Below are positions 25,648 through 63,600 of a stretch of 64,000 bases of DNA, piece by piece. The notes beneath the pieces are model-generated. The model was not told the DNA's origin and made no database searches. It saw only the letters and a program-made list of their open reading frames with translations. Position 1 is the stretch's first letter. The number at the start of each line of letters is the position of its first letter. Source of the stretch: Bacteroidota bacterium. GTDB lineage: Bacteria; Bacteroidota; Bacteroidia; Chitinophagales; UBA10324. Where the stretch lies: positions 123,664-187,663 of the forward strand of contig BJGQ01000001.1 of assembly GCA_014190575.1 (NCBI GenBank). The letters are read 5' to 3'. The translations under genes and the position numbers were made by a program.

Positions 25648-25808
25648 CCGCTACTAATTGAATTCTAAAATTACTTCATTCAAATTCATAAAAAAAAATA
25701 CCTGCTACATTTTTTCACAAATCGTTTTTTTGTATTACGCAATCAATTATTGGCGCAAGTTAGTTTATAAACTTTACACAACGAACAAACAGAACTTTCA
25801 TTATCTGT

Positions 25809-25816
25809 TATTTTTG
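25809..25816 (+). promoter_or_regulatory. candidate -7 promoter element (TAnnTTTG) for the C40 peptidase gene
   Basis: 'TATTTTTG' lies 19 nt upstream of the proposed GTG start at 25835. Motif match only. Confidence 0.25.
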
Positions 25817-25834
25817 TTCAAACTTTTATACATC

Positions 25835-34435: not shown

Positions 34436-34554
34436 TGTTTTGATGTTTGAAACAGTTATTTTTTTATTGAGCACAAAGATAATCAGAAAGAACAAAAAAC
34501 AAGGTTTTCAAAAAATAATCAGCACACAAATTTGTTCATTGTCTAAATATTTTA

Positions 34555-42542: not shown

Positions 42543-42548
42543 GGTGTA

Positions 42549-43337: not shown

Positions 43338-43428
43338 AAAAAAGGTGTTTTGTCTTTTCAGATTACACCTCTTTACTTACATATTTTATAAAAGTTGTGG
43401 CCTTTAGTTAAAAAGGATTATCAATTAA

Positions 43429-44106: not shown

Positions 44107-44139
44107 CTTTCAGAATATTTATTCATAAATACAAATGAA

Positions 44140-44901
44140 TTAAAAAGTTGCGCTATCAATTTCATTTATATAAGTCAAAAACAATTTCATTGCCTTTGTT
44201 TTTTCATCATCAAGAATAAAATCAATTCCATTCGTGAGGTAATCTTTCACATCAATTGAACTATAATTTACTTGTTCTTCAATTACAACTTTGCCAATAG
44301 AGTTAACCCCGAATTGAAATGCGCTTGTTAATTCAACTTCAATATCGTCAGGAATTTTAGTTGCACTAATCCACGCTGCAAATACAAAAGGAAGGTTTGT
44401 CAACTTCTTCCATTCTACACTTAAATCATAAACAAACGGAAATTTATTTTTTAACTCAAGCGCTCTGTCACCAATAACCAATGCAGCTGTTTTATCTTTT
44501 ATATTTTGCTCGTACCCTTCATTTGTTGAAACAAATTCAGGTTTCAGTTTCCAATGCTTCTGCATTAAAATTTTGGTAAGCATTACAGAAGTGCGAGATT
44601 GATAATCGAGTAAGACTGTTGTACACTTTTCAATGGGCAATTCAGAAAACAAGCAAACCGATTGAACCGAACCATTGGCTCCTATACAAAACCCCTTGAG
44701 CAAATAATATTCTTTCATTTGAGAAAGCACTGCAACCGGAACCAATGCTAAATCAACTTCGCCATTTAATAATTGAATTGCAATGTTTGCAGGTGTATCA
44801 ACTGAATATTCAATTTCAGAATTGAAAGGATAATTTTTTAAACCATACAAAAATGGTTTCGAGTTCAAATAAGAAACAGAGGCAATTTTATACTTCGACA
44901 T
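44140..44901 (-). CDS. mqnA: chorismate dehydratase MqnA (futalosine pathway)
   Basis: 253 aa. 'KIASVSYLNSKPFLYGL...LLNGEVDLALVP' matches the MqnA/MqnD periplasmic-binding-like fold family. It lacks the 'CPND' N-terminal motif I associate with MqnD. Confidence 0.75.
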   Translation of the reverse strand: MSKYKIASVSYLNSKPFLYGLKNYPFNSEIEYSVDTPANIAIQLLNGEVDLALVPVAVLSQMKEYYLLKGFCIGANGSVQSVCLFSELPIEKCTTVLLDYQSRTSVMLTKILMQKHWKLKPEFVSTNEGYEQNIKDKTAALVIGDRALELKNKFPFVYDLSVEWKKLTNLPFVFAAWISATKIPDDIEVELTSAFQFGVNSIGKVVIEEQVNYSSIDVKDYLTNGIDFILDDEKTKAMKLFLTYINEIDSATF

Positions 44902-45502
44902 GCAAGTGCGTCAGATCGTTGAATGCAGTGAGTTTAAATTCTGTTCCATCAAACTGAACACGATAAAGTGATAAGTTGTAATGCGGAAATTCATCCATCT
45001 CACATAATGATTTATTTAACAATGTGCAAAGCAATATGCGCATGGCTCTGCCATGCATACACACTAATATTTTTTTTTGAGGTCGTGATTGCAATACTTT
45101 AATAAATCGATTATGTTTTTCCTGCAACTCTAATGGACTTTCGCCATTGGAAGTTTTAACATAAAGATTTCCTGATTTCCATTCACCTATTATTCTTTTA
45201 AACTCGCTGTGGAAATAATTATCAACTTCTCTTCCTTCAAAATCTCCCCAACCTATTTCATCCAGTTCCGAAAATTTTTCATGCGGAATTTTTAAATCAA
45301 TAAATGACTGGACCGATTCAATTGCACGCTGCAAAGTTGAAGTGTAAACAATTTCAAATGGTTCGTTTTGATATTTTTGAAAGAAAGAATCAGCTTGTGA
45401 CCTTCCTTTTTCATTTAATGAAGGGTTAACCCCACGCCCCTGAACAATTCCCTTTTTATTATAATCAGTTTCGCCGTGGCGTATTAAAAATATTTCTTTC
45501 AA
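44888..45502 (-). CDS. histidine phosphatase family protein (phosphoglycerate-mutase-like)
   Basis: 204 aa. 'IFLIRHGETDYNKKGIVQG' is the RHG catalytic motif and 'CMHGRAMR' carries the second His. The start is a TTG at 45502, with no in-frame ATG upstream of the RHG motif. The 3' end overlaps the mqnA start by 14 nt. Confidence 0.85.
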   Translation of the reverse strand: MKEIFLIRHGETDYNKKGIVQGRGVNPSLNEKGRSQADSFFQKYQNEPFEIVYTSTLQRAIESVQSFIDLKIPHEKFSELDEIGWGDFEGREVDNYFHSEFKRIIGEWKSGNLYVKTSNGESPLELQEKHNRFIKVLQSRPQKKILVCMHGRAMRILLCTLLNKSLCEMDEFPHYNLSLYRVQFDGTEFKLTAFNDLTHLHVEV

Positions 45503-45529
45503 TTGGTGTGTATTCTTACTTATAACAAA

Positions 45530-46726
45530 TTAATTCAGATATGCTTTTTCATTTTTTTCCTTTTCAAAAGGATTTAAAATAAAATCACGAATAGGTTTAT
45601 ATAAAGTGTCTCTTTCTATTGGTCTGCGATTTACGGCCAAAATTAAATCAACCAATTCTCTAGTATTCATGGTTGGATTTTGCTCCTCTGCTCCTGCCAT
45701 TGCGTAAATTTTTGTTGTATCATCAATGGTTCCGTCAATATCATCAACACCAAAATTTAAGAGCAACTGCGCATTAGCTCTACCAATCATTGGCCAGTAT
45801 GCCTTTATGTGATTGAAGTTATCGAGAAAAACTCTTGACATCGCATAACATTTCATGTCTTCTACAATCGTAGATTCAGGAACATCGCTCATGTCATTAT
45901 CACCGTTACGGAATTTGAGAGGGATGAAAGTATTGAAGCCTTTTGTTCTGTCTTGCAATTCTCTTAATCGATTCATGTGATTTATGCGATTTGAATAATT
46001 TTCAATGTGACCATAAAGCATGGTTGCGTTAGAAGGGATTCCAAGTTTGTGTGCCGTTTCATGAATCGTCAGCCACTCTTCAGATGATGCTTTATCGTTG
46101 CAGATTTTACTTCTAATTTCTTCATCAAAAATTTCAGCGCCACCACCGGGCATCGAATTCATTCCGGCATCTTTCAGTTTCTGCAATCCTTCTGTTACAC
46201 TCACTTTCGCTTTACGGAACATGTATTCCAACTCTACAGCAGTAAAAGCTTTCACATGCAAATCAGGTCGGTGTTTTTTTATTTCACGAATCAGGTTGCA
46301 GAAAAAATCGAGATTCATTTTCGGATGCACACCACCAACGATGTGAACTTCGGTTACAGGTTCGCCATCGTACTTTCGAACAATGTCCATCATTTGTTCA
46401 TGTGATAATTCCCATGATTCATTCTCCTGTTGAATCAATCGGGAATACGAGCAAAAGTTACATGCGAAAACACATTTATTAGTTGGCTCAATGTGAAAAT
46501 TGCGATTGAAGAAAACAGCATCAGAGTTTTTCTTTTTACGAACATAATTGGCGAGTGAACCGAGGAATCCTAAACTTCCATTCTCATATAAATACAAGCC
46601 TTCTTCAGAAGAAATTCTTTCTGATGCAATCACCTTCTCTCCTATTCTTTTCAATTCATTGCTCAGTGTTTCGTCATTCAAAATAAACTGAACAGAATCT
46701 TTATTGCCTATTAATTCATTTGTCAT
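45530..46726 (-). CDS. radical SAM menaquinone-biosynthesis enzyme, MqnE/MqnC (CofH-like) family
   Basis: 398 aa. The cluster-binding motif lies in 'PTNKCVFACNFCSY' (CxxxCxxC). The C-terminal half resembles CofH/MqnE/MqnC. 'NFHIEPTN' leans toward MqnE, but I cannot discriminate the two by eye. Confidence 0.8.
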   Translation of the reverse strand: MTNELIGNKDSVQFILNDETLSNELKRIGEKVIASERISSEEGLYLYENGSLGFLGSLANYVRKKKNSDAVFFNRNFHIEPTNKCVFACNFCSYSRLIQQENESWELSHEQMMDIVRKYDGEPVTEVHIVGGVHPKMNLDFFCNLIREIKKHRPDLHVKAFTAVELEYMFRKAKVSVTEGLQKLKDAGMNSMPGGGAEIFDEEIRSKICNDKASSEEWLTIHETAHKLGIPSNATMLYGHIENYSNRINHMNRLRELQDRTKGFNTFIPLKFRNGDNDMSDVPESTIVEDMKCYAMSRVFLDNFNHIKAYWPMIGRANAQLLLNFGVDDIDGTIDDTTKIYAMAGAEEQNPTMNTRELVDLILAVNRRPIERDTLYKPIRDFILNPFEKEKNEKAYLN

Positions 46727-46750
46727 AACAGTTGAAACAAAAATGTTTGA

Positions 46751-48337
46751 TTACAGTTCGTGTTGAACAATAACTTTTTTTACAACCTTTTCTCCGTTCA
46801 CATTTAATTCAATGAAATAAAGTGCTGATGGGAAATTGCTTAAATCAATCTGGAACTTTGATACTGAAAGTGCTTCCATATTCACCTGCTCCATTTGACC
46901 AAGTACATTGTAAACAGATACTTTTCCATTCAAATCTACAATCTCACCGAAATCAAGTATGATTAAACTACCTGTAGGGTTTGGATAAATTTTTACCGCA
47001 TCAGTTATTGGAGGAAATTGCAAACTCACAATGTAACTTCTGGTTTTAAAATCATTAGTGGTGTCTTCATCCTGATTTCCGTTTGGATTTTTTGTCCATG
47101 CACAAAATAAATTATACCATGAACTGTCAATTATTTTCGGAAGTGTTATATCAACACTTTCGTTTGGTGCGAGTGAACCTGTCCAATGAAAAGTATTGAG
47201 ATGACTCTTCCAGTTTTTCGCATAAAATATTTCTGCAGAAGTAATAGTTTGAGAACCGAAATTATGAATAGTAACAACCGGAACTAAGCTATCACCATAA
47301 ATGAATTCATCCGGATTTAAAATTTTTATAATACCAATATCATTATTATAAGCAGAAACCGAATTGCAACCATTTGAAGTTAAAATACTTGAGCGATATG
47401 CAGTTAAATTCAAAGTAGCTAACATTCTTTCTCTTTGACCAAATGTGAAAATATTCATACAACTATCATTTGTATAATCCATGTAATTCTCAAACATATC
47501 ACTTGTATTATTACAACTCGGAAACGGAAAAACTTCGCAGTGGTAATGTTCTTCTGCCTGAACTGGAGTGTCATCTACATTATCATCGGGGCTACACCCT
47601 GGTGAATCGCCCCAAATATGAACAAGGTTTAACCAATGCCCAATTTCATGAGTAGCAGTTCGACCTTCGTAGTATTTTTTTGAAAAACAATTTATTCGAC
47701 CGAAAGCTTTGTAATGAATAACAACTCCATCGTTTGAATCTATGTTTACAGGAAATGTTGCATACCCAAGCATAGGATATTCAAGAGGACAAACCCAAAT
47801 ATTCAAATATGAGGAATTTGGCCAAGCATCATCTCCTCCTGTTGCGGTTTGTTTAGGTGAAGAAAAATCTTGAAACAAAGTGGTTGTTGAAATTCTTCTG
47901 ATGCCATTTGTTGTGTTTCCATTTGGGTCGCGTGTAGCAAGACAAAACTCAATTTCACAATCAGCCCCAATACTATCAAATAGTGATGGTGTTTTAAATT
48001 TATCTGCATTAAATCTTCTGTAATCTTCATTGAGTGCATCAATCTGCGAAGTGATTTGCCAGTCACTCAACTGATGATTTACGCTATCAGGATTATAAAG
48101 TAAATGAACAACTACAGGAATGATAATAGGTATTTTTCTCGAATGATTTATAGTAAGCGACTTAATATAATTCTGAAAATAAATTTCTGATTGCTCCATC
48201 ATCTCTGCAAATCCAGGAACAGTTGCTTTCAGATATTGCTCGTATTCATAAGAGTTGCATCGTTGTTCTTCCTGAGCAAATAATTTTTGCCCGAAAAGAA
48301 TTCCAAATACTAAAACAAAAATTATTTTTTTATTCAT
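46751..48337 (-). CDS. M43-family zinc metallopeptidase with T9SS type-A CTD (tandem paralog 2)
   Basis: The zinc site is 'THEIGHWLNLVHIWGD' (HExxHxxxxxH). The signal peptide is 'MNKKIIFVLVFGILFGQKLFAQ', from the ATG at 48337; the track start at 48409 is an extension overlapping the upstream gene. The C-terminus 'VKIYPNPTGSLIILDF...ALYFIELNVNGEKVVKKVIVQ' resembles a type A sorting domain. Confidence 0.85.
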   Translation of the reverse strand: MNKKIIFVLVFGILFGQKLFAQEEQRCNSYEYEQYLKATVPGFAEMMEQSEIYFQNYIKSLTINHSRKIPIIIPVVVHLLYNPDSVNHQLSDWQITSQIDALNEDYRRFNADKFKTPSLFDSIGADCEIEFCLATRDPNGNTTNGIRRISTTTLFQDFSSPKQTATGGDDAWPNSSYLNIWVCPLEYPMLGYATFPVNIDSNDGVVIHYKAFGRINCFSKKYYEGRTATHEIGHWLNLVHIWGDSPGCSPDDNVDDTPVQAEEHYHCEVFPFPSCNNTSDMFENYMDYTNDSCMNIFTFGQRERMLATLNLTAYRSSILTSNGCNSVSAYNNDIGIIKILNPDEFIYGDSLVPVVTIHNFGSQTITSAEIFYAKNWKSHLNTFHWTGSLAPNESVDITLPKIIDSSWYNLFCAWTKNPNGNQDEDTTNDFKTRSYIVSLQFPPITDAVKIYPNPTGSLIILDFGEIVDLNGKVSVYNVLGQMEQVNMEALSVSKFQIDLSNFPSALYFIELNVNGEKVVKKVIVQHEL

Positions 48338-48374
48338 GATTGACGCGTTGCCAAATATACTTGCGACCACCCAA

Positions 48375-49967
48375 TTAAAAATCATGTTGAACCAATACTC
48401 TTTTAACAATGGAATTGTTGCTATCCGAAAAACGGATGTAATAAATCCCTGATGTATTCTGACTGAAATTAAAACGATATTTATTTTCCGCTACTTTATA
48501 TATTTCCATTTCAACTAACTGTCCAAGTGAATTATAGACTAAAATATTTTTTTCAGTAAATTCAATATTATTCATCTCAATTGTGAGAAATGAATTAGTC
48601 AGGAAAACAATTTCAGGATTGTTGTGATTCGAAATTTCCTGAATAGAATTAACAGAATCTGAAATAGAATAATAACTGTGCGTTTTAAAATCATTTGTGG
48701 TATCCGCATCTTGATTTCCATTTGGATTTTTCGTCCATGCACAAAAGATATTGTACCAATTACTATCGGCAATTGCAGGGAGAGTAACATCTAAACTTGC
48801 ATCGGGAGCAAGTGACCCACTCCAATTAAATACATTCAAATTACTCTTCCAGTTTTTTTCATAATTGATTTCACAGGAAGTAATTATTTGAGAACCAAAA
48901 TTGTGAAGCGTTACCACCGGAGTGATGCTACCTCCAGAAACAATGTAATCCGGATGAATAATTTTTGTAATGCCAATGTCAAAAGAAAAAGTACCAACTG
49001 CATTACATGCTGTTGAATTTAAAATTGAACTGCGAAATAAATTTATTGCGCTCACCATTCTTTGTTTTTGACCTGCTGTAAAAATATTCATGCAACTATC
49101 GCGGCTGTAATCCATGTAATTCATACTCATATCACCAGAGTTAACGCAACTCACAAATGGAAACGGAATACATTGATAATGTTCTGCATCCTGTAAAGGA
49201 GTATCGCCAACATTATCATCAGTACCACACCCTGATGCATCGCCCCAAATATGAATCAAGTTTAACCAGTGACCGGTTTCGTGAGTTATAGTTCTACCCA
49301 ATTTATATTTAGTTGAAAAAACATTTATTCTACCAAAAGCTTTGAAATGACAAACTACACCATCAGAAGCAGCATCAATACTCGCACTTGGGAAAGTTGA
49401 ATATCCCAATTCAGGATATACAAGTGGACAAACCCAGATGTTTAAATAATCAGTATATGGCCATGGATCATCACCACCATTTGCAGTTTGTTTTGGTGAA
49501 TTGAAATCTGTAAAAACAGTATAAGGTGTTGCAACTCTTCTAATACCTGTAGTTGCATTTCCATTCGGGTCGCGCTTAGCTAAACAAAAATTTATTTCGC
49601 AATCAGCAGCAATGGAATCAAAAAGAGATGGAGTTTTATATCTGTCGGCATTCATTAATCTGTAATCTTCATTTAGGGCATCAATTTGTGAAGTGATTTG
49701 CCAGTCACTTATTTTATGATTTTGGCTATCAACATTATATAATAAATGCACAACTACCGGAATGGTGATGATACTTCGTGAATTGATTTTATGAGTACTG
49801 ATGTAATGCTGCAAAAAAATTTCCGATTGCTCAAACATATTTTCATATGCAGGATTTTCCGCTTTCAGCTTTTGAATTTGTTCAAATGAACGACACCGGA
49901 TTTCTTCTTGAGCAAATAGTGGTTGACTGATGATAACTGAAAAACAAATTAGGAAAATTTTTTTCAT
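48375..49967 (-). CDS. M43-family zinc metallopeptidase with T9SS type-A CTD (tandem paralog 1)
   Basis: The zinc site is 'THETGHWLNLIHIWGD' and a signal peptide is present. It is collinear with and highly similar to the downstream paralog through the catalytic and middle domains. The C-terminus is 'GIYYIRFSDSNNSIVKRVLVQ'. Confidence 0.85.
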   Translation of the reverse strand: MKKIFLICFSVIISQPLFAQEEIRCRSFEQIQKLKAENPAYENMFEQSEIFLQHYISTHKINSRSIITIPVVVHLLYNVDSQNHKISDWQITSQIDALNEDYRLMNADRYKTPSLFDSIAADCEINFCLAKRDPNGNATTGIRRVATPYTVFTDFNSPKQTANGGDDPWPYTDYLNIWVCPLVYPELGYSTFPSASIDAASDGVVCHFKAFGRINVFSTKYKLGRTITHETGHWLNLIHIWGDASGCGTDDNVGDTPLQDAEHYQCIPFPFVSCVNSGDMSMNYMDYSRDSCMNIFTAGQKQRMVSAINLFRSSILNSTACNAVGTFSFDIGITKIIHPDYIVSGGSITPVVTLHNFGSQIITSCEINYEKNWKSNLNVFNWSGSLAPDASLDVTLPAIADSNWYNIFCAWTKNPNGNQDADTTNDFKTHSYYSISDSVNSIQEISNHNNPEIVFLTNSFLTIEMNNIEFTEKNILVYNSLGQLVEMEIYKVAENKYRFNFSQNTSGIYYIRFSDSNNSIVKRVLVQHDF

Positions 49968-50037: not shown

Positions 50038-51036
50038 CTAAAACCTCGGACAGAAAATTTTCTTCTTGTGCATACCTGGAATATTATTAGTGTACATAAC
50101 TGAAATTTCGGGCCCGCCGCGAGCATGACTCACCAAAGCCAAGCGACTGAAATTAATATCATACGAAATACCCATAGTAAATTTATTCAGGTCAATTTTT
50201 GTAACGAAAATAAATGCATCGTTCCAACGCATCATTGCGCCTATATAAACTCCATAATCGTTCAGGTAATTGTAATTCAAACTATATCGTTGTAGATACC
50301 CAATCACCAATTCGTTAAATGGTCCTTGTTTCTCAAATAACAATTTCGGATATGCGGTAAATTTATTTCCCATTCCAAGATTGGCTCCCACATTCACAAC
50401 CAATTTTCTGAATACTCTTGAGGACGGGTCATCATTAAAGGTTTGATTTGGCTTAAAAACATGATACATCGCCATGCCCGCTGTAAAATTATTTGACTTG
50501 TCAATGAGTTTATTGTATTCTGCTCCTAACGATAGATCGTAATAATCTGAAATACCAATTGGAAAAACTTCAGTGAATGTGCCGCCTTCATATTGCTCAT
50601 CCCATCTTAAATTATCGTAACTAATATTACTTAAACAATAAGCACCCATTAATCCAAAGCCTAAAAAGTCTTTGTTGTATTTACCAATGGCAACATTATA
50701 AGCTTCACTTAATCCAATGTATGAAGTATTAAATCTTGAATCTCCGGCTTTATCATTTATAAACATAAAACCGGTTCCAAAAACATCTTTCTTCTTTTTT
50801 CCTGCTACAAATGAAAGCTCAGCACTTCCAATTGCAGTTGTATAAGGCACAGTTATACTTGACCATTGGTTTCTATAATTACCGGCTAATCTATAATCAC
50901 CGGTAATGAAACCAGTTTTAGCCGGATTTACCTGTAATGGTGTTGCGTAAAATTGTGAGAAATGAATATCCTGAGCCGACGAAAAATTTATCAGAACAGA
51001 AAATAAAATCGTTGATATAAATTTAAATAGTTTCAT
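50038..51036 (-). CDS. T9SS membrane protein, PorP/SprF family (adaptor candidate for giant B)
   Basis: 332 aa. It carries 'AQDIHFSQFYATPLQVNPAKTGF...DYRLAGNYRNQW' and ends '...IFCPRF'. It lies 76 nt downstream of the 51113-56686 gene. Confidence 0.9.
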   Translation of the reverse strand: MKLFKFISTILFSVLINFSSAQDIHFSQFYATPLQVNPAKTGFITGDYRLAGNYRNQWSSITVPYTTAIGSAELSFVAGKKKKDVFGTGFMFINDKAGDSRFNTSYIGLSEAYNVAIGKYNKDFLGFGLMGAYCLSNISYDNLRWDEQYEGGTFTEVFPIGISDYYDLSLGAEYNKLIDKSNNFTAGMAMYHVFKPNQTFNDDPSSRVFRKLVVNVGANLGMGNKFTAYPKLLFEKQGPFNELVIGYLQRYSLNYNYLNDYGVYIGAMMRWNDAFIFVTKIDLNKFTMGISYDINFSRLALVSHARGGPEISVMYTNNIPGMHKKKIFCPRF

Positions 51037-51112
51037 TTTAAAATTTTCTGCAATAAAAAAAATTTAACATTCATCAAATTCAATTCCAGGTAACACACAT
51101 TAATAATCAATC

Positions 51113-54100
51113 TCATCTTACTAAAGTTACATTACCCTGCCGTTCAATAATAAATCCATCGCCACAAATCGCTTTCAAGTAAAAGACATACACAGCCGGG
51201 GGCAATTGCTTTCCTCCAAAGGTTCCATCCCAGCCAATGTTTTGATCAGCAGTTTCAAATACCAGTTCACCCCAACGATCATAAACTCTTAAAAAATTTA
51301 ATTCACGAATTCCTGATGAACGAACTTTGAACACATCGTTCTTTCCGTTTGCATTCGGAGAAAAAACATTCGGAATGTATAACACATCATCATTGCACAT
51401 TACTGTAATAATCATAGAGTCTTCAGCCTTGCATCCAAATTCATTAATTGCTGAAAGTGTATAAGTAGAATTTTGCAATGGAGTTGCAACCGGATCTTCA
51501 CAACCTGTACAACTCAAACCTTCAGGCGGACTCCAACTAAAAGTTCCCGATGCATCAGCATTAATATTGTAACTGTCACCTGAAACCAAGGTTACATCAG
51601 GGCCTGCGTAAGCAGAAGGTATCGGAACAATTGTTATAATCACCTGAAGTGTATCACTTGCCATGCACACATTATCAGTAATGATTACAGAATAAATAGT
51701 TGTGCTAAAAGTCGAAGCTAAAGTTGTTGATTCAGTTGGATTGCTTAATCCTGCTGATGGAGACCATGAATATGATGTTCCACCACTTGCGTATATCTCA
51801 ATCGTTTGCAATTGACAAACAGTAGTATCACCCCAAGCTAAAAATACAGGAGGCGGTAAAACTTTTATCTTAACTGAATCCTGCGCTGAACAATTGTTTG
51901 CATCTGTTACAGTAACCGTGTAAGTCATATCAACCAATGGAGTGCAAATTGGATTTGAAACCAAACTGTTATTTAAATAAGATGGTGGATTCCAATTGTA
52001 AGTAACACCTCCACTTGCATTTAGCTGTCCCGAAAAAGTTAAACAGATGGTATCATTCACTCCTGCATTTGCAAGTGGCAATGGATTTACTAATACAATA
52101 ACATTTGCAGTTCCGATACAGTTATTGCTATCAATGGTTGTTACTGTGTAAGTTGATGTTGATGTTGGATTTGCAATTGGATTTGGAATAACAGTATTAC
52201 TCAACCCAGCTGATGGCGACCACGAATAATTTAATCCACCAGATGCATTTAACTGTGTAGTATCACCAAAACAAATCGTAGTATTTGAACCACCACTAAC
52301 TGTTGGATTCGGCAGAACAATTATTCCAACAAATGCTGTTCCTGTACAACTATTTGCATCGGTTCCAGTAACTGTAAAAGTTGTATTGCTAAAAATTGTA
52401 GCTGTTGGATTTTGAATCAAATTATTATTTAAAACTGCAGATGGTTGCCATACATATTGATTTCCACCTCCTGCACTTAATTGTAATGCGACTCCTGAAC
52501 AAGTTGTATCTGATGAAAGCGATGATGCAGTAATTACAGGAGCATTATAAATTGAAACAGAAACACTGTCTTCATTAATGCAACCATTCGCATCAGTAAT
52601 TGTTACTGTGTATGTAATATTTAATAAAGGAGTTGAAATAGGATTGGAAATATTTGCATTGTTTAAATAGGTTGCCGGCAACCAGGAATAAGTAATTCCA
52701 TTAGCTGAAGAAAGTTGCGCACTCGCATTAGGGCAAATAGGGGTATTGGTCGACACATTCGGATTTGGCAGTGAAAGCACAATCACATCTATAGTTGATG
52801 TATCAGCGCATGAACCAATACCAGATGCAATGAGAGTAACGGTAAATAATCCAACGGCAGAAAAATTATGTGAAGGATTTGATAGTACAGAAGAGTTATT
52901 TCCTCCGCTCGCTAAATCACCAAAATTCCAATTCCAGTTAGTAATTGGTTGATTGGAATTGTAATTAAAATTGACAGGAGTATTAATGCATGGAGTTAAA
53001 TCATCAGCAGTAATTCCAATTGTAGGAGGAGGATAAACAAAAACTGTATCAGATAAAACTCCTGTACATCCATTTTGTGTGTTCACAAAAAGCGTAACAA
53101 TGTAAACTCCAATTGTATCATAATAATGTAATGGGTTTTGTAAAATACTTGTATCCAGAATTCCACTTGTTGAGTCACCAAAAGTCCAGAACCATGAAGT
53201 AATAGGAGAAATACCAAAAGTAGAATCAGTAAAGGTCACAGTTCCAGAATTACACAAGTATGGAATATCAGGATTCCAAAAAACATTTGGGCTCCCTGCA
53301 ACTATTGAATCAATCGGAAATGAATAAATACAACCTGCTCCATTATCCAATAAAAGTGAAGGATAAAATGTTCCGGGGCTTAGATACACATAACATATGC
53401 TATCGTTGGCGAATGGAACAACATTCCCATCGCCAAAATCCCATGTATATGAGGTAGTGGTATTTGAATTTGCCACAAAGCAAACATTCAAAGGATTGCA
53501 ACCACTGGTTGGAGTAACAGAAACTGTTGCAGTTGGGCCAGTTATAGAAATCAATGAATCTATTACTAGCGTATCATCACAACCGTACTGATTGTGAATT
53601 ATTAAAGTCACAGTATAAAAACCAGGTAAGCTATAGATATGAAATGGATTTTGCACATTGCTATTTGATCCGTCACCAAAAATCCAATCATAAGTTGTGT
53701 TGGCATCTACGCCTGTTGATGTGCTTGTGAAATTTACGGGCAGTGGAGGGCAACTTGAATAAGTACTGTCAGCAGTAAAATTTGCCTGAGGATCAGTTAC
53801 ATGAATGTATAGTGTGCGAATCATCGTATCGGCACAGCCTGCCGTATCATTTCCAATTAATGTAACTGTAAAATCACCAACACTTAAATAAGTATGACAT
53901 GGATTCAATTGTGTTGAAGTTGCGTTATCACCAAAATTCCATTGATAAGAAAGACTTCCGCCAAAAGATGAATTAAAAAAACAAGTTGATTCTCCTAAGC
54001 AAACAGTAGAATCAATGGCCACAAAAGAAACATTCGGTTGATACGGATTAACATATTGTGGAATCGTAAGCGTATCATAACATCCATGATTCTCCAATGC

Positions 54101-56686
54101 AACCAGAGTTACATCATAACTTCCAACATCATTATAAATATGATTTGGATTTTGTAAAGATGAGGTATTTAAAACTCCGCTGGCGGTATCACCAAAATTC
54201 CACCAAAAAGATACAACTGTTGAAACAATACTTGAAGCCGCTGCATCAAAATCAACTGATAAAGGTGTACAACCACTCAATGGAATACCTGTAATATTTA
54301 AATTCAATCCATATGCATAAATATAGTAAGGTTTGTACATAGTATCTGTACAACCATTCGCATCAATTGCAATTAGTTCAACACTGAATTTTCCTGCTGC
54401 ATTAAAATTCCGACATGGATTCATAATATTACTATTCAAAATCAAAGTACCATAAGCATTGTAAATTGACCATTGATAAGTTGTGGCATTAACTGAAAGG
54501 TTTGTAAAGCATACCTGATCAGGTATACAAACAACAGTGTCATCAGCTATAAAATCAGCAGACACATTATTGATAATAATATTCTGATCCAGCGTATCAT
54601 AGCATCCGGTTTGAAAATTCTGAACCACTAACTCAACAGGATAAGTACCATTTGATGGATAGGCAACTGTTATTACAGAATCAGAAAGAGAAGAAGGAAT
54701 ACCACCCGGAACACTCCAGAAAAAAGTATCAGCGGCAATTGAACTACCTCCATGAAGGGAAATATTATACGGGTCTGCGCACGAGCTAACAACAAAGAAA
54801 TTAGCAATGGGTGGAAGTATATGAACCATTGAATCAATTGTCAATGTATCACAACATCCATTGTTGCAAATCACAAGTGTTACATCAAACCACCCTGTAT
54901 CAGGATACAAATATTGTGGGTCTGATGAGGTGCTCATAATATCAAAAGGTGGCACTCCGATAAAATCCCATTGATAAGATGTAGTTGAATCAGTGCCAGT
55001 AGAAGAATTGGTGAAAGCAACAGGTTGATAAGCGCAAGTGACAGATGGGCTTGCTGTAAAATTCGGAGTTGGATGATTCCCAACACAAACCTCATTAACA
55101 TGAAAAACAGTGTCTGCACAACCCAATGCATTACTAACTATTAAACGAACATTATAACAACCGACATTATTATAAATGTGTGATGGGTTTTGAAGATTCG
55201 AAGTATTTAGCGGTCCGCTTGATGGATCACCAAAACTCCAAAGCCATGATGTTGGAGCACCTGAATTTCCTGTATAAATAAAATTGGTATTAAGTGGGGT
55301 ACATCCATAAGGAGGCATAGAATTAAAACTTGCAGTTGGACAATCAATAATAGCTGCGCTGTCAAAAACAAATGTATCAACACAACCAGCAGGATTGGTA
55401 ACAGTTAAAGAAGCCGAATAAATTCCACAACTATTATATGTAACATTCGGTGGATTTGGGTTACTCCATGATGCAGGAACTCCCCCTGAAAATTGCCAGT
55501 TGTAACTCAACCCCGGACCACCGGTTGAGGTATTGTTGAAGTCAATTATTTGAGGTGGTTGACAGGTATAAACATTTCCTGTTAAAGTAAAATTAGCATG
55601 AGGGTAATTTGCAACCACAATGGTTGTACACTTATTTGCAATGCACCCACCGGGGTAAGTTATTTGTAAGCACACCTGATAACTTCCTGCACTGTTAAAA
55701 GTAAATTGCGCATTCTGTGTATTCGATGTTGCTGGAACTGCATTAGGTGTTGTTGTCCAACCCCACGATAATGGAGGTGACGAAGATATTCCTTGAACAT
55801 CTAAAACAAATGGTACACAACCGCTTGTTGAGTTAACTGTAAAGTCAGCGATATTACTTGCAATAGCTGCAAAATTTGTTTGCACTATTGTATCAGCACA
55901 ACCAGTTGCGTTTGTTACAATTAAAGTTACATCATATATCCCGGGGGAATTATAGGTTGCCGATGGATTCAAGATATTCGATGTTGCTGGTATGCCACCA
56001 GGGAAAATCCACTGATAATTTAAAACTCCTATGCCTGTAGATGTGTTTGTGTAATCAATGGTAAATGGCGCACTACAGGAAACACTTGTACTTGCTGTGA
56101 ATGAAGCATTAGGTTGGTCAGCAATACAAATCAAGTTCGACATCGTTGTGTCATCATTGCACCCATTTGCATCTGTTACTATTAAAGTAACACTCTTGCA
56201 ACCAGAAATTGTATAAGGGTGATTTGTATTAGCAAAATTCCCTGTGTTACCATCACCAAAGTCCCAGAAATAAGTATTGATTGGAGCTGAACCTAAAGTA
56301 GTGGTACTGTTAAATTGTGTTGTTAAGGGAATGCATCCTGTTAATGGATTAGCAGTAAAAGAGGCAACAGGGTTACAAAAAATATTAATTATTTGAGTAG
56401 ATGTATCAATGACAATTCCATTAGTAGCAATTAATGTAACAACAAAATTCCCACATGTTAAATACGAAAACGAAGGACTTTGGAAAGTTGAATTCACTCC
56501 CGGGTTCACACCGAAATTCCATTCATATGTTAAACCAATACCAACAGATTGGTTTGTAAATGAAACTGTAGTAGGAGCGCAATTTGGGTTTTGATAGTTA
56601 AAAGTAAAAGCAGCAGTAACCTGAGCATCTGCCTTAGAAAAGATAATATTTAAAAAAAGAAATAGTAAAATGCGTGTAACCTTCAT
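51113..56686 (-). CDS. giant (1857 aa) PKD-like/Ig-like repeat protein with T9SS type-B CTD
   Basis: The architecture matches the 19930-25647 protein: signal peptide, many 'W(D/N)FGDG'-type PKD-like modules, Ig-like 'CxGxxxQLxAxGGxxYxWxPxxxL' modules, then 'VLYIPNVFSPNANGKNDVF...YDRWGELVFET...GWDGTFGGK...GNVTLVR'. Confidence 0.9.
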   Translation of the reverse strand: MKVTRILLFLFLNIIFSKADAQVTAAFTFNYQNPNCAPTTVSFTNQSVGIGLTYEWNFGVNPGVNSTFQSPSFSYLTCGNFVVTLIATNGIVIDTSTQIINIFCNPVASFTANPLTGCIPLTTQFNSTTTLGSAPINTYFWDFGDGNTGNFANTNHPYTISGCKSVTLIVTDANGCNDDTTMSNLICIADQPNASFTASTSVSCSAPFTIDYTNTSTGIGVLNYQWIFPGGIPATSNILNPSATYNSPGIYDVTLIVTNATGCADTIVQTNFAAIASNIADFTVNSTSGCVPFVLDVQGISSSPPLSWGWTTTPNAVPATSNTQNAQFTFNSAGSYQVCLQITYPGGCIANKCTTIVVANYPHANFTLTGNVYTCQPPQIIDFNNTSTGGPGLSYNWQFSGGVPASWSNPNPPNVTYNSCGIYSASLTVTNPAGCVDTFVFDSAAIIDCPTASFNSMPPYGCTPLNTNFIYTGNSGAPTSWLWSFGDPSSGPLNTSNLQNPSHIYNNVGCYNVRLIVSNALGCADTVFHVNEVCVGNHPTPNFTASPSVTCAYQPVAFTNSSTGTDSTTSYQWDFIGVPPFDIMSTSSDPQYLYPDTGWFDVTLVICNNGCCDTLTIDSMVHILPPIANFFVVSSCADPYNISLHGGSSIAADTFFWSVPGGIPSSLSDSVITVAYPSNGTYPVELVVQNFQTGCYDTLDQNIIINNVSADFIADDTVVCIPDQVCFTNLSVNATTYQWSIYNAYGTLILNSNIMNPCRNFNAAGKFSVELIAIDANGCTDTMYKPYYIYAYGLNLNITGIPLSGCTPLSVDFDAAASSIVSTVVSFWWNFGDTASGVLNTSSLQNPNHIYNDVGSYDVTLVALENHGCYDTLTIPQYVNPYQPNVSFVAIDSTVCLGESTCFFNSSFGGSLSYQWNFGDNATSTQLNPCHTYLSVGDFTVTLIGNDTAGCADTMIRTLYIHVTDPQANFTADSTYSSCPPLPVNFTSTSTGVDANTTYDWIFGDGSNSNVQNPFHIYSLPGFYTVTLIIHNQYGCDDTLVIDSLISITGPTATVSVTPTSGCNPLNVCFVANSNTTTSYTWDFGDGNVVPFANDSICYVYLSPGTFYPSLLLDNGAGCIYSFPIDSIVAGSPNVFWNPDIPYLCNSGTVTFTDSTFGISPITSWFWTFGDSTSGILDTSILQNPLHYYDTIGVYIVTLFVNTQNGCTGVLSDTVFVYPPPTIGITADDLTPCINTPVNFNYNSNQPITNWNWNFGDLASGGNNSSVLSNPSHNFSAVGLFTVTLIASGIGSCADTSTIDVIVLSLPNPNVSTNTPICPNASAQLSSANGITYSWLPATYLNNANISNPISTPLLNITYTVTITDANGCINEDSVSVSIYNAPVITASSLSSDTTCSGVALQLSAGGGNQYVWQPSAVLNNNLIQNPTATIFSNTTFTVTGTDANSCTGTAFVGIIVLPNPTVSGGSNTTICFGDTTQLNASGGLNYSWSPSAGLSNTVIPNPIANPTSTSTYTVTTIDSNNCIGTANVIVLVNPLPLANAGVNDTICLTFSGQLNASGGVTYNWNPPSYLNNSLVSNPICTPLVDMTYTVTVTDANNCSAQDSVKIKVLPPPVFLAWGDTTVCQLQTIEIYASGGTSYSWSPSAGLSNPTESTTLASTFSTTIYSVIITDNVCMASDTLQVIITIVPIPSAYAGPDVTLVSGDSYNINADASGTFSWSPPEGLSCTGCEDPVATPLQNSTYTLSAINEFGCKAEDSMIITVMCNDDVLYIPNVFSPNANGKNDVFKVRSSGIRELNFLRVYDRWGELVFETADQNIGWDGTFGGKQLPPAVYVFYLKAICGDGFIIERQGNVTLVR

Positions 56687-56762
56687 GTGTGTCGAAAAAC
56701 AATGTGCTCAAAGTAAAGGAATTTCTATTAAGAAAATAAATGACTTTTGCTAATCGGTATTC

Positions 56763-56832: not shown

Positions 56833-57588
56833 ATGTCTTTTTACCAATTAAATAAAACTGAAAGACAAAAATTAGTTACCAAAATCAGTAATGATATTTT
56901 ATCTGATATTGAAAAAGCAACCAATAAAAAAGTAAGTCAATATTTTTCTGATGATGATACTTACATACGGAAAACTGCATATCTCGCTATTGGTAAAATT
57001 TATAAACAAGATAAAAAGTTAAAAAAAATAATTCTTTCAATGCTTAATTCACTTATCAAATCTGATAATGAAAAAATTCGCCAAACAGTTATAAATGCTT
57101 CCGGTGAAATCGGAATTATTGACTTCCGTACTGTTGAGATATTAATGGAAGAAGGTTTATTCGATTCGCATCACTCCGTTCGCAATGCTGTGATCGGTTC
57201 TATAAAAAAGATGGGTGAGAAAAATCTAAAACCGGTTCTCGCTTTCGCAAAAAAATATCTTCATCATAACGACAAAGAAATCCGTCGGGAAATTTGTCAT
57301 GGCATAGAACTCAGAGGCAGGAAAAATCCTGAAGATATTTTACCGTTGCTTAAAGAATTACAGTTTGATAAAACTGCAAGAGTTCGAAATACATTAGTCC
57401 ATGTACTTGGTCAAATTGCTTACAAAAAAGGTTGTCTTGAAATTGTTATTACTGATTTAAAAAACTGGAACAATAAGGAATTGGTTGCAGATGCGTTGGA
57501 AGAAATTATTGATGTGCATGACCGATATAAAAATTTCGCAGTGAAAACTCAGAACGAGGCGAGAAAATACATTGAGGAGAATATTTGA
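56833..57588 (+). CDS. HEAT/ARM-repeat protein (function unknown)
   Basis: 251 aa. It shows repeated helical-hairpin units with 'D..(Y/E/H/A)(I/V)R' signatures (DDDTYIRKTAYLAIG, DNEKIRQTVINASG, DSHHSVRNAVIGSI, NDKEIRREICHGI, DKTARVRNTLVHVLG). Confidence 0.6.
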   Translation: MSFYQLNKTERQKLVTKISNDILSDIEKATNKKVSQYFSDDDTYIRKTAYLAIGKIYKQDKKLKKIILSMLNSLIKSDNEKIRQTVINASGEIGIIDFRTVEILMEEGLFDSHHSVRNAVIGSIKKMGEKNLKPVLAFAKKYLHHNDKEIRREICHGIELRGRKNPEDILPLLKELQFDKTARVRNTLVHVLGQIAYKKGCLEIVITDLKNWNNKELVADALEEIIDVHDRYKNFAVKTQNEARKYIEENI

Positions 57589-57631: not shown

Positions 57632-60600
57632 TTATCTGATCAATGAAACATTCCCATGTTTTAAAACTTCTTGCCCATTCGCACAAGTTCCTTCAAGGTA
57701 GTAAACAAAAACTGCAGGAGCACATGCTTGTCCATTCCAATTTCCATCCCAACCCTGATTCACATCGTAAGTTTCGAAAACCATTTCTCCCCAGCGGTTA
57801 AATACTCTGAACGCTTTTACCTCACTTAATCCATAAGTTCTTATTCTAAAAACATCATTTTTATTGTCGCCATTCGGAGTGAAAGCATTCGGAACATATA
57901 CCAAGTCCTCATTACAAGTTAAACTGATATGAACTTCAGCTTCTGCACGACAACCTGAAGAGTCGGTTGCAGTCATCACATAAGTCATTGGCGTATTTAA
58001 ATGATTTACAACCGGGTCAATACATGAAGTGCAACTTAGAAAATCAGAAGGTGACCATTGAACATTGCTTGCATTTGTGTAACCATAAAGTTGATAAGTT
58101 GAGCCATACAATAAATCAACATCAGCGCCTGCACTTACGATTGGCAATTGATTAACTGTTACCACCACCGTGTCGGAAGAAGAGAAGCAAATTCCATCGG
58201 TAGAATTTACAATGTATGTTGTAGTTACAGTTGGAGAAGCTGTTGGATTTTGTATGTACGGATTATCCAATCCGGCAGAAGGTGTCCATAAATAATTATT
58301 TCCTCCGAAAGCATTTAACTGTGTTGCGTCATTTCTGCAAAGTGTAATATCAGGGTCGGCAGTTATTGCAAATGGCCTTTTAACTTTTACAGAAACAGTA
58401 TCAGAAGCAGAACATCCGAAACTATCATTCACAGTTAATGTGTAAGTAATATCAAACATTGGAGTGCAGGTAGGAACCTGCAAGGCCGTATCATCTAAAT
58501 AATCTGCAGGCGACCAGTTATAGAACGAAGCTCCATCGCCATGTAATTGTGTAGAATTCGGATAACAAACTGTTTGGGATGGTCCAGCATTTACATTCGG
58601 TTTCAAATGAATATTTATGTTGATGGTATCTTGTCGGTAACAACCATTTTGATTACCTACATTAACTATGTATGTTGTAGATAATGATGGAGACGCCATT
58701 GGGTTAGAGATATACGGGTTATCCAATCCTGTTTGCGGAGACCATTCGTATGATGTTCCACCGTTTGCATTCAGCTGTACAAAACCACCTTCACACAAAT
58801 CAACATCAGGCCCGGCTGCTGCCATTGGTATTTGATAAACTACTATTTCAATAGTTGTTGAATCAGTACAACCAGTACCATTATTTCCGATAATAGTGTA
58901 AGTGGTAGAAACAATCGGAGTTGCATTCACTGTATTTCCGGTGGTTGTATTTAATCCATAAGCCGGATACCATTCATAATAATTTGCGCCACTTGCTGTG
59001 AGAACAGAAGTTTGTCCAACACAAAGATTATTTTGATTTGAAACGGCAGAAATTGTTGGAACAGGATTAATGGTTACTAAGGTTGTATCACTTGCAGTGC
59101 ATCCGTTAGCATCCGTTCCAATTACAGAATATGATGTATTTACTACAGGATTAACTGCAATAGAATCTCCCAGTGCATTTGTTGACCATAAATAATTTAC
59201 TGCACCAGTTGCAGCTAGAGTTGCAAAATCTCCTGGACAAATTACTGGAACTGATGGTATAACAACAGAAGCTATCGGATTAATTAGCACAGGTATTGTT
59301 GTGGCAGACTGACAACCAAAATTATCAAATCCTATTATCTGATAAGTTGTATTTACACTTGGATTTGCTGTTACAAAATTTCCGGTTGTTGCACTTAATC
59401 CTACTGAAGGACTCCAGTTATAAGTTGTTCCGCCAATTACAGAAAGTATTGTTGATTGACCAATACATAAAGTTGAGTCAAGAGCTGAAGAAATAATTAC
59501 AGGTAAAGGCTGAACAGTTACAACGGATGAAGAAGTTGCAGTACACCCATTCGAGTCAATTGTACTGACTGAATAAGTTGTAGTAACTGTTGGATTCGCG
59601 ATTACAGATGCTGTTGTTGTTGAATTCAAATTTGTTGATGGTGACCATGAATAGGTGCTTGAACCCAAAGCATTCAATGTTGCATTTGCGCCTAAACAAA
59701 TCACCGGATTCGTGCTTGTGATTGAGATTGAAGGGACAGGATACACTAAAATATTTACCAACGAAGAAGCTGAACAACCAAGCATATCAACTCCTGTTAC
59801 AGTATATGTGATTGATGAATTCGGTTGCGCCTGAATTGTATTTCCAGTTGTGGTATTCAATCCAATTGACGGGCTCCAGAAATAGTTTGCAGCACCTGTT
59901 GCACTCAATGTTGCTGTTGAAGAAGAGCACAAAGTTGCTGAAGTTGAAGAAGACACTATTACAGGAATCGGATTAACATTTACAACAATCATTGCAATAG
60001 CAGTACATCCATTAATATCAGTTCCGATAACTGTGTAAGTTGTTGTTACAATTGGATTTGCTATAACTGTTGTTCCTGTTGTGGATGATAATCCGGTTGA
60101 TGGACTCCATAAGAAATTACTTGCACCATTCACATTCAATGCAACAGATTGTCCAATACAAATAGAGGTGTCAGAAGAATTTGTAGTGATAATAACCGGC
60201 AATGCTACATCAACCGGTACCGATTGAATATTTGCACAACCATTTCCATCAATTCCACTAACAGTATAAGTTGTTGATGAAGTTAATGAAGCAGAAACAG
60301 TTGCACCAGTTGTGGTATTCAATCCTGTTGATGGAGTCCAAACATAAGTTGAAGCACCGCTTGCATTAATCTGAATTGTGCCACCATTGCAAATGAAATT
60401 ACCTGATGAAATTGCATTGATAATTGGCAAAGGATTTACAGTAACAATGGTAACGACAGTATCAGCACAAGCGCCATTCATTCCAATAACAATATATGCC
60501 GTTGTCGAAGCAGGGTTTACTGAAATAGTATTACCTAAAGCATTGGTCGACCAATGATAATTAGCAGCACCACTTGCAACCAATGTAGCAAATTGACCTG

Positions 60601-63600
60601 CACAAATTGTATCAGTTGAAACTGTTACAATTGGATTTGGAAGTAAAACAATAGGAATAATAGTTTGACCTGAACAACCTGTTGCATTTGTTGCAACTAC
60701 TGTATAAGTAATGTTTGATGTTGGTTGCGCCGAAACTGTATTTCCTGAAGTAGAATTTAAGAAAGTTGAAGGCGACCAAGAATAATTTGTTCCGCCGGTT
60801 GCAGTCATTGTTATAGCTTGCCCTAAACAAATACTGTCGTTAGTTGCAACAATATTTATTAAAAGATTTGGAGCAATAATTACTTCTGAAGTTGTTTGAC
60901 CAGCACAACCACTTGCACTGATTCCTGAAACCGTGTAAGTAGTATTTACTGATGGAGATGCAATAACCACATCACCAGTTGTAACATTCAATCCTGTTGA
61001 AGGTGCCCATGTGTATGTGTTCGCACCACTTGCCATAATTGTAGCAGTTGATGCATTGCATATTGTACTTATGGAAGGATTTACAGTAATAAATGTACTA
61101 CCATTCATGGTGGTAGTTTGTGTATCAATAGCTGAACAACCATTTACATCAGTGTAAGTATAGGTTACTGTTGTAGTTGCCCCTGCAACTTGTGATGGAT
61201 TAAAAATATTTCCGTTCACTCCTACTCCACTAAAAATTCCACCTGCAGGAATTCCAACCAGTGTATCAGCAAGGTTGTTTGTACAATACGAATTATTTAA
61301 ACCGCTTAATGTTGCAACCGGTGAAAGATTAATAGTTACTACAGCAAATGCTGTATCAGTGCATGAACCGTTATTTCCTATTACAGTGTATGTAGTATTC
61401 ACCAATGGAGAAACTGAAACTGTTGCTCCAATCATATTCCCTGGATACCAGGTAAAATTCGCTGCACCAGTTGCAATCAATGTTGCAGATGTACCTGAAC
61501 AAATATTTGCATTATTAACCAAAACAGTTGGAGGTGCAAGCATACTAACAACTGCAACAGCAGTATCAGAGCATGTATTTGCAAATCCGATTACTGAATA
61601 TGAAGTGGTAACTAATGGCTGAACAGTTACTGAATCATTGGTTGATGCAAGTGAAATCCAATCGTAAGTGGTTGCGCCTTGTACAATTAATATAGCAGCA
61701 TCACCTGAACATATTGCCGGATTGTTTACTATAACAACAGGTATAGGGTTTATTATTGCATCCATAGCAGTATCAGCAAAACAGCCATTCGGATCCGTAT
61801 ATGAATAAGTAATTGTTGCAGAAGAACCAACTGCCAGATTAGGATAAAAAATATTTCCACTCACTCCTACTCCACTGAAAATTCCACCAAGCGGATTTCC
61901 GATTAAAGTATCTGCAATTGAATTTGCGCAATAAGAATTATTTAATCCACTGAAATTGACAAGTGGAATTGGATTAACAAATACTATTGCCAATGTTGTA
62001 TCAGTACATGAACCATTGTTTCCGATTACAGTGTAAGTAGTATTTACCGTTGGAGAAACTGATAATGTATTTCCGAATGTTCCAATTGGCAACCATGAAT
62101 AATTTGCCGCGCCATTTGCAACAAGTGTTGCTGATGAACCAGAACAAATTGTATCGTTAACTACAGAAACTATCGGAGGTGCAAGCATACTCACAACTGC
62201 GACTGCCGTATCAGAACATGTATTTGCATATCCGATAACAGTGTATGAAGTTGTAATAATTGGTTGAACAATTATTGAATCATTTGTTGATGAAGGTGAA
62301 ATCCAATTGTAACTTGTTGCACCTTGCCCAATCAATGTTGCTGAATCGCCTGAACAAATTGAAGAATTGTTTGCCACCACATTTGGTTGCGGAATAATAT
62401 TTATCACAACAATTGTATCAGCAAAACATCCGTTTGAATCTATTCCTGAAATTGAATAGGTAGTTGTTACAATCGGTGCAACTGTAACTGAATCACCATT
62501 AATATTTGATGATTGAACTGAAGGTGACCATGAATAGGTAATTGCTCCACTAACAGAAATTGTTGTTGCTGTTCCGGCACATATTGAATCAATTGCAGCT
62601 GCAATTGAAAGTTGAATTGGTGTTGAAACCGAAACAACAACCGAATCTGAACCAATACAACCATTGGCATTTGTTCCATTAACAAAGTAAGTTGTTGTAA
62701 TAAATGGATTTGCTGTTACTACAGAACCAGTAGAATCGCTCAATCCAATTGTTGGTGACCAGCTATATGAAATTCCCCCCGAGGCAGTCAGCGCAGTTGA
62801 TATGCCATTACAAATTGTTGCGTTTGCTGAAGCAACAGAAATTAATGCGCCATTGAGAACCACAGTAGTGTCATTATCAAAATTCGAACAACCAAAAGAA
62901 TCGGTATAAGAATATGTTACATAATATGGACCGCCTGTTCCGGCAATCGCAGGATCAAATGTACTTCCAACTACACCGGTACCAAAAAGAATTCCTCCAA
63001 TAGGGTCTACTATTAATGTATCAATTGATGCATTGGTGCAATAATCAGGTTGCAATCCATTTACTGCAACAATAGGCAATGGATTAACTGTTACTGAATA
63101 CAATGCGGTATCCATACATCCATACATATTCATTCCAGTAAGCGTGTATGTTGTGCTAATTAACGGCGATGCAATTACTGTTGAATCATAATAACTATTC
63201 AATGTGGGGTCAGGAGTCCACATATAAAAATAGGCTCCGCTTGAATAAAGCGTTACATTTTGTCCAATGCAAACTGACTCATTTGCACCATAAATAATAA
63301 GGTTTGGATTAATGGTTATATCAATGGTTGTAAAGCCAGTGCAGCCATTTGCATCTGTACCTATCACTAAATAATTAGTTGATGAAGTTGGTGTAGCAAC
63401 CACTGTTGAACCGGTAGAAGTATTTAAACCGGTAGAAGGAGTCCATTGATAAGTTGATGCACCACTCAAAGTAATAATAAGACTATCACCTAAACAAAGT
63501 GATGGATAAATAGGCGTATTAATAATTGTTACAGGCGCTCCTACATATACAATTGCAGTAACTGAATTTGTGCAACCAATTGTATCAGTTCCAAAAATTG

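Follow-up and report, generated by a model that had tools for sequence, protein, structure and literature searches.

In Flavobacterium johnsoniae the cognate pairing of a type IX secretion system (T9SS) cargo with its own shuttle is known biology (PMC12618676). According to that work, SprB with SprF and Fjoh_3952 with Fjoh_3951 are adjacent-gene cognate pairs of a type-B C-terminal sorting domain (CTD) and its shuttle (PMC12618676; Kulkarni et al. 2019 as cited there), and superfolder GFP (sfGFP) that carries the SprB or the Fjoh_3952 CTD as a fusion is secreted only when the shuttle from the next gene is present (PMC12618676). The same work gives five conserved motifs, A to E, as needed for the secretion of a type-B CTD (PMC12618676, Fig. 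5A). Most pairs of type-B CTDs in F. johnsoniae are 20-30% identical, with crosstalk at 68% identity and none at 43%, and three orphan cargos whose CTDs are more than 44% identical share the orphan shuttle Fjoh_1677 (PMC12618676). Type-B cargo stays bound to, or anchored by, PorP-like proteins (PMC9143113). SprF of F. johnsoniae is joined by a disulfide to GldK of the gliding track through a Cys-x-Cys in its C-terminal tail, a motif invariant in close SprF homologs (PMC12635249), and cassettes that lack PorE are associated with mobile adhesins (PMC12618676). Here we describe a locus of the same general kind, cassette 2, on the minus strand at positions 50038 to 56717 of a 64 kb stretch of contig BJGQ01000001.1 from a Bacteroidota bacterium; this whole stretch of 64,000 nucleotides is referred to as the window.

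We propose that cassette 2 is, with high probability, a self-contained two-gene T9SS unit made up of a giant surface protein (giant B) and its own outer-membrane carrier (PorP B). Giant B would first be exported by Sec, and its type-B CTD would then be recognised at the SprA/Sov translocon. PorP B, a predicted 14-strand barrel encoded by the next gene downstream, would pull giant B out and hold it on the cell surface, where giant B may act as a long PKD/Ig-repeat adhesin. We infer that PorP B binds the CTD of giant B and anchors the protein because of the experiments in F. johnsoniae and Porphyromonas gingivalis. For its secretion a type-B cargo would be expected to depend on the T9SS and on a PorP/SprF-like protein, and not on PorV. 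Cassette 1, also in the window, is an old paralog of the same two-gene unit, and related genomes retain the two units next to each other. The M43 peptidases, both encoded directly downstream of PorP B, would be independent, type-A (PorV-dependent) T9SS substrates. The features of cassette 2 are listed in the direction of transcription.

56708 to 56717, minus strand: conserved box TTTACTTTGA, about 22 nt before the start codon of giant B
51113 to 56686, minus strand: giant B, a 1857-aa T9SS type-B cargo (open reading frame (ORF), Pfam and NCBIfam)
56624 to 56686, minus strand: putative Sec signal peptide of giant B, MKVTRILLFLFLNIIFSKADA followed by Q (translation, read by eye)
51116 to 51376, minus strand: type-B C-terminal sorting domain of giant B (TIGR04131)
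51037 to 51112, minus strand: spacer of 76 nt between giant B and PorP B, without a terminator-like hairpin
50038 to 51036, minus strand: PorP B, a PorP/SprF-family outer-membrane beta-barrel of 332 aa (PF11751, TIGR03519)
50041 to 50055, minus strand: FCPRF tail at the C-terminus of PorP B, containing a single conserved Cys (alignment)

Giant B contains a PKD array (PKD_4 at E 2e-130 in 11 stretches, with Pfam PKD also matched), a stalk with a weak Pfam match to Ig_7 and a C-terminus matched by CHU_C (PF13585, 58.6 bits against a cutoff of 27). The type-B sorting domain TIGR04131 (56.2 bits, cutoff 35) covers residues 1771-1857 of 1857, the extreme C-terminus, and at the other end of the protein MKVTRILLFLFLNIIFSKADA followed by Q reads as a typical, putative Sec signal peptide. 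PorP B is assigned to its family by both PF11751 (117.8 bits) and TIGR03519 (146 bits, cutoff 90.55). An earlier note, made from the letters of the window, had described a protein of 1857 aa whose PKD array is followed by an Ig-like stalk and a type-B CTD, with a PorP gene 76 nt on; both the coordinates and the domain calls hold. The AlphaFold2 model of PorP B, computed from an 18-sequence alignment, is a 14-strand barrel (mean predicted local distance difference test (pLDDT) score 74.4, predicted template modelling (pTM) score 0.71) with a disordered tail at its C-terminus (residues 318-332). In the PDB the best matches to the fold of this model are 8gl6_F and 6h3i_F, both from T9SS translocon complexes, followed by OmpG and FadL. 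We take chain F of 8GL6 and 6H3I to be the PorV shuttle. A PDB sequence search with PorP B returned no match at E<=0.01, and in a database look-up 'Bacteroidota bacterium LBMAG27' has a protein identical to PorP B.

The pairing of giant and PorP is conserved. For this comparison loci were fetched for six B-type PorP orthologs (L086, L088 and L090-L093) and two A-type orthologs (L094 and L095), with the more distant L008 added; L092 and L099 represent the same lineage and were counted once. Each of the eight B loci (the window, L086, L088, L090, L091, L092/L099, L093 and the distant L008) has a B-type giant directly before its B-type PorP, at spacers of 0-76 nt, those of the B orthologs being 0-61 nt, and an A-type giant lies upstream of an A-type PorP in all three A loci. 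Across every fetched locus a type-B CTD ORF stands immediately upstream of 76 of the 103 PorP ORFs; with the cargos as the starting point, a PorP comes immediately after 36 of 77 type-B ORFs. The CTD of giant B is among its best-conserved regions, at 85% mean identity and 77-93% between B orthologs, and CTDs are likewise alike within the other orthogroups (A 74-86%; C, that of the giant C described below, 77-81%).

Indeed the whole of giant B is conserved in length. Its orthologs are exactly 1857 aa long in the seven lineages that have the whole gene on the contig (the window, L086, L088 and L090-L093), at 63-79% identity, and their seven-way alignment of 1858 columns has gaps in just two. The near indel-free evolution of so long and repetitive a protein hints at a constraint on length, architecture or domain register. 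Upstream of giant B, the TT..TTTGA core of TTTACTTTGA is invariant in eight lineages, independent of the upstream gene, and the box is probably a Bacteroidota -7-type promoter element belonging to the cassette itself. A second conserved stretch, ACCGAT.AGCAAAAGTCATTT, is found about 40 nt further upstream in several lineages. The region that holds the two is likely to be a promoter or 5′ leader.

The C-terminal tail of PorP B bears on how such a complex might be held in the cell envelope. C329 is invariant in the alignment of PorP B with its homologs, and a single-Cys tail is also present in PorP A of cassette 1 (window 18920-18934, minus strand). The earlier note had set out AQDIHFSQF and a terminal FCPRF as marks shared by the two PorPs; these motifs are real in both but family-wide rather than specific to the pair, as a QDxHFSQF-like motif occurs in 202 of 212 PorP homologs and a Cys within the last 8 residues, typically as CPxF, in 197 of 212. 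A CxC within the last 12 residues is absent from PorP A, PorP B and the 212 homologs, and because of this absence these proteins are not SprF orthologs in the strict sense. The genes adjoining either cassette include none that is PorE-like (OmpA-family, peptidoglycan-binding): PorP B is followed by the two M43 genes and a radical SAM gene, and PorP A by PyrB on the opposite strand. The only OmpA-domain gene of the window (32810-34495) was considered as a PorE candidate and rejected, as it lies more than 13 kb from either cassette. From this lack of a PorE-like gene beside both cassettes, together with the conserved Cys in the PorP tails, we speculate that the complexes ride a GldK-containing gliding track and are not fixed to the cell wall, with the tail Cys as a candidate disulfide site.

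Cassette 1 consists of the following two genes.

19930 to 25647, minus strand: giant A, with the same family calls as giant B
18917 to 19933, minus strand: PorP A (TIGR03519 151.3 bits, PF11751 119.6 bits)

The stop of giant A overlaps the start of PorP A in an ATGA that is kept in the A-type orthologs. Giants A and B align collinearly from end to end at 34.9% identity, and the PorPs are 43% identical in the window (43-45% for the two types), in agreement with the earlier description of cassette 2 as a diverged paralog of cassette 1. A-type giants are 1905-1908 aa long, those of L094 and L095 being 1906 and 1908 aa. Among database homologs PorP B forms one orthogroup at 64-80% identity and PorP A another at 76-83%, together with a copy at 99.7%. 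Because each cassette thus has its own orthologs in related uncultured Bacteroidota, the duplication is old. Both cassettes are found in one other genome, L094 (GCA_038326325.1), where they lie 8 kb apart. The proposal that the two are each other's closest paralogs within the genome gives an ambiguous result: in the 64-cassette sample the A and B groups are mutually nearest, at 43-46% against at most 37% for the rest, but in the wider neighbour-joining PorP tree they fall into different subclades with other lineages in between. The matches listed in a profile search of the genome contigs with the PorP alignment are distant PorPs at 31-44% identity. Upstream of cassette 1, a divergent block of NlpC/P60+SH3, YjeF (NAD(P)HX repair) and NlpC/P60 genes (25658-28738, plus strand) is also kept in L094 and L095.

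Directly downstream of PorP B lie the two peptidase genes, which we regard as neighbours outside the module.

48375 to 49967, minus strand: M43_1, a type-A-CTD M43 metallopeptidase of 530 aa (Peptidase_M43 and TIGR04183)
46751 to 48409, minus strand: M43_2, a type-A-CTD M43 metallopeptidase, 552 aa as listed (Peptidase_M43 and TIGR04183)

Both proteins score above the cutoffs of 23 for PF05572 (59.8 and 55.3 bits) and of 23 for TIGR04183 (33 and 46.5 bits), as expected from the earlier reading of two tandem type-A-CTD M43 peptidases on the same strand, and they are 59% identical. The metzincin motif is usually HExxHxxGxxH; the zinc motifs here, HETGHWLNLIH and HEIGHWLNLVH (47500-49200 region), have Asn at the position of the usual Gly. 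The listed TTG start of M43_2 (48409) overlaps M43_1, and a metagenome gene call (544 aa) uses a different start. The probable true start is Met25 (nt 48337), at which the signal peptide MNKKIIFVLVFGILFGQKLFA begins and which leaves a 37-nt spacer after the M43_1 stop.

The earlier note had raised the possibility that cargo, adaptor and peptidases form one unit, and had suggested looking in relatives for the order giant-porP-M43-M43, the lack of which it took to speak against such a unit. That order is not conserved. The M43 pair follows the cassette in two of seven B lineages, the window and L090, and the genes that follow PorP B in the other five are of several kinds.

L086, downstream of PorP B: response regulator, opposite strand
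L088 and L092, downstream of PorP B: HU-CCDC81, opposite strand
L091, downstream of PorP B: EamA, opposite strand
L093, downstream of PorP B: DUF6923 type-A protein

BLAST of both M43 proteins against the ORFs of PorP loci L001-L095 (flanks of at most 10 kb) found matches only in L090 and in L044 (35% identity, 5.6 kb away). In L096, L097 and L098, one or more M43 genes are followed by radical-SAM (CofH_C), His_Phos, VitK2_biosynth, PrsW and further genes, as in the window; upstream of them stands a beta-lactamase gene, a gene for an unknown protein of 702 aa or DUF885, and no cassette. L096 shares its sample with the cassette locus L093, and L098 shares its metagenome-assembled genome (MAG) with the cassette-A locus L006. 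Because the M43 genes keep the downstream block without a cassette in these three lineages, the pair belongs to the downstream menaquinone-gene neighbourhood, and its adjacency to the cassette in the window and L090 is ordinary local synteny. Furthermore, the window encodes five type-A CTD proteins, which makes a type-A peptidase adjoining any gene unremarkable, and the same-strand gene run extends for about 20 kb through housekeeping genes.

The block itself, in which M43 stands with radical-SAM (CofH/MqnC-like), His_Phos, VitK2_biosynth, PrsW and PAS-histidine-kinase genes (window 39087-49967, minus strand), is an odd but stable arrangement in five lineages; M43 is a tandem pair in four of them (the window, L090, L096 and L098), whereas L097 has one gene only. 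The spacer between PorP B and M43_1 matches TAnnTTTG exactly at TATATTTG, 30 nt ahead of the start codon of M43_1. This match was considered as an independent M43 promoter and given little weight, because it is absent from the L090 spacer and TAnnTTTG is found about 0.34 times per kb per strand. A sigma-70 promoter scan, which does not cover Bacteroidota promoters, was uninformative (47 found against 53 expected), as was the terminator scan (7 against 6.8).

Several points weigh against the two-gene unit as we propose it. The organism is an uncultured lake MAG, known here from its genes alone. The co-variation of CTD and adaptor that the earlier note had suggested testing is present, with a Mantel r=0.75 between CTD and PorP distances over 64 cassettes and a partial r=0.61 after removal of the pre-CTD domain, but it is consistent with co-evolution and no proof of it, because adjacent genes share their history and a correlation is expected from that alone. 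With identities of about 50% among CTDs A, B and C, PorP A and PorP B may be cross-used. The 70-nt spacer between PorP B and M43_1 has no predicted terminator, so that read-through is possible in the window lineage, and M43-M43 follows the cassette in a second lineage, L090.

The window holds two further type-B cargos, which were not picked up in the earlier note; they are listed here with a HEAT-repeat gene.

57632 to 64000, minus strand: C-terminal third of giant C, an SprB-like type-B cargo, with a frame that is open to nt 64000 and runs off the window
56833 to 57588, plus strand: HEAT-repeat protein of 251 aa, divergent from giant B (Pfam)
5004 to 7835, minus strand: giant D, type-B, 943 aa (Ig_3, PKD_3, CHU_C 56.9 bits)

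In the source contig (L001, 1-3405 region) giant C reaches a full length of 6571 aa, with PKD and SprB repeats and a TIGR04131 CTD. Neither giant C nor giant D has an adjacent PorP gene in the window: giant C is followed by the HEAT gene on the other strand and then by giant B, and giant D by a glycosyltransferase gene. The 64 kb thus hold four type-B cargos and two PorPs, two of the cargos being orphans. The HEAT gene divergent from giant B is also seen in L094 (17088-17852; GCA_038326325.1). C-type giants vary in length, from 3373 aa (L088) through 5366 aa (L092/L099) to 6571 aa, and are about 50% identical to one another; giant B is far more constrained. Over their last 100 aa the four CTDs of the window share 43-51% identity, CTD B being 51, 48 and 44% identical to those of giants A, C and D, and alignment shows VPNAFTPNGD.KND, RWG..VF.T, GWDG and GNVTLIR as blocks common to all four. 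Because this range overlaps that of shuttle sharing in F. johnsoniae (above 44%) and two of the cargos are orphans, a strict specificity of one adaptor for one cargo is not established. Of the earlier picture of co-diverged, cargo-specific modules, the conserved pairing stands for both cassette types.

One alternative is a three-gene unit in which PorP B serves both giant C and giant B, one shuttle for two tandem cargos. Giant C has a bona fide type-B CTD and no PorP of its own, and the next PorP on the same strand is PorP B. The order of C-type giant, B-type giant and PorP recurs in three lineages, the window lineage, in which the HEAT gene lies between the giants, and L088 and L092/L099, in which the giants directly adjoin; more widely, 8 cassettes of the 64 have two type-B cargos followed by one PorP, and four of these 8 belong to unrelated lineages. 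CTDs C and B are 48% identical, above the 44% level that is exceeded among the three orphan cargos of F. johnsoniae with a common shuttle (PMC12618676). However, CTD C is no nearer to CTD B than to CTD A (47%) and forms its own conserved type, and the F. johnsoniae orphans use a separate orphan shuttle, not that of a neighbour, with no crosstalk at 43% CTD identity (PMC12618676). Giant B is moreover preceded by a conserved box of its own, TTTACTTTGA, and an adjacent C-type giant is absent from four B lineages (L086, L090, L093 and L091). In L091 the giant upstream of the B cassette has a D-type CTD. An orphan PorP may also be encoded elsewhere in the genome. We consider this three-gene unit unlikely. 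A fuller version of it, in which PorP B is shared by a length-variable SprB-like mega-adhesin (3373-6571 aa) and a length-invariant 1857-aa PKD adhesin and both are loaded onto the gliding track through the single-Cys CPRF tail, we regard as more doubtful again; if true, it would be a conserved operon type of two cargos and one shuttle that is not described in the cited F. johnsoniae work. A metagenome scan for C-type giants found one close relative only, L099, which is the L092 lineage, and so yielded nothing independent on the shuttle of giant C.

A second alternative holds that PorP A and PorP B are interchangeable, and that the duplication gives dosage or separate regulation in place of specificity. 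At 51% identity in their last 100 aa, CTDs A and B are far more alike than type-B CTD pairs of F. johnsoniae, for which 20-30% is typical, and crosstalk has been demonstrated for similar CTDs at 68% identity (PMC12618676). On the other hand, each PorP type is kept with its own giant type in all lineages examined and the two cassettes are retained in parallel, the PorPs are only 43-45% identical and belong to different subclades of the family tree, and CTDs at 43% identity show no crosstalk in F. johnsoniae. We hold interchangeability to be rather improbable. The last alternative, an operon of cargo, adaptor and processing proteases, could draw on four genes on one strand, the terminator-less spacer and the identical order in L090, but it is largely refuted and to us very improbable indeed because comparative synteny contradicts it: other genes, mostly on the opposite strand, follow PorP B in five of seven B lineages, M43 orthologs keep the menaquinone block with no cassette upstream, type-A proteins are common and the strand run is long here, and the spacer holds the TATATTTG match that L090 lacks.

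The main gain from the two-gene unit that we favour is one of annotation: giant B is to be read as a type-B T9SS cargo and PorP B as the PorP/SprF-like carrier that is likely to be its cognate, while the label for the M43 peptidases is that of type-A substrates unrelated to them. The protease unit was the only potentially new part of the earlier interpretation, and it is the part that comparative synteny contradicts. This lineage, in which four CTDs of 43-51% identity stand beside two PorPs and the layout of two cargos and one PorP recurs, provides natural material for asking how type-B CTDs pick their shuttles. The indel-free 1857-aa adhesin, with its possible constraint on length or architecture, is also worth a look.

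Among described systems, the P. gingivalis set of PG1035, PorP and PorE is alike in that a type-B CTD protein is held at the surface through a PorP-family barrel (PMC9143113), an arrangement that is predicted here from the genes alone. It differs in having one PorP and one type-B cargo, with PorE as the tie to the cell wall, whereas the 64 kb examined here encode at least two PorPs and at least four cargos and no adjacent PorE-like gene. M43 type-A substrates of the cytophagalysin/pappalysin family resemble the two peptidases in combining Peptidase_M43 and HExxHxxxxxH with a TIGR04183 CTD; the pair here departs from them in the Asn that replaces the usual metzincin Gly, and in being conserved as a tandem beside menaquinone biosynthesis genes.

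A further likeness is to the F. johnsoniae pairs, in which a large, repeat-rich surface protein with a TIGR04131 CTD is likewise encoded immediately upstream of a PorP/SprF-family barrel, and in which several such pairs per genome likewise occur together with orphan cargos. Unlike SprF with its Cys-x-Cys tail (PMC12635249), the PorPs here have only one Cys in their terminal CPRF; the Fjoh_3952-3950 operon has a PorE-like gene downstream and the cassettes here have none; and the CTDs, usually 20-30% identical in F. johnsoniae, are 43-51% identical in this segment. Finally, giants C and D resemble the F. johnsoniae orphan cargos that use Fjoh_1677 in being type-B cargos without an adjacent PorP, but giant C, unlike those, is not dispersed and lies upstream of another cargo and PorP pair in three lineages.

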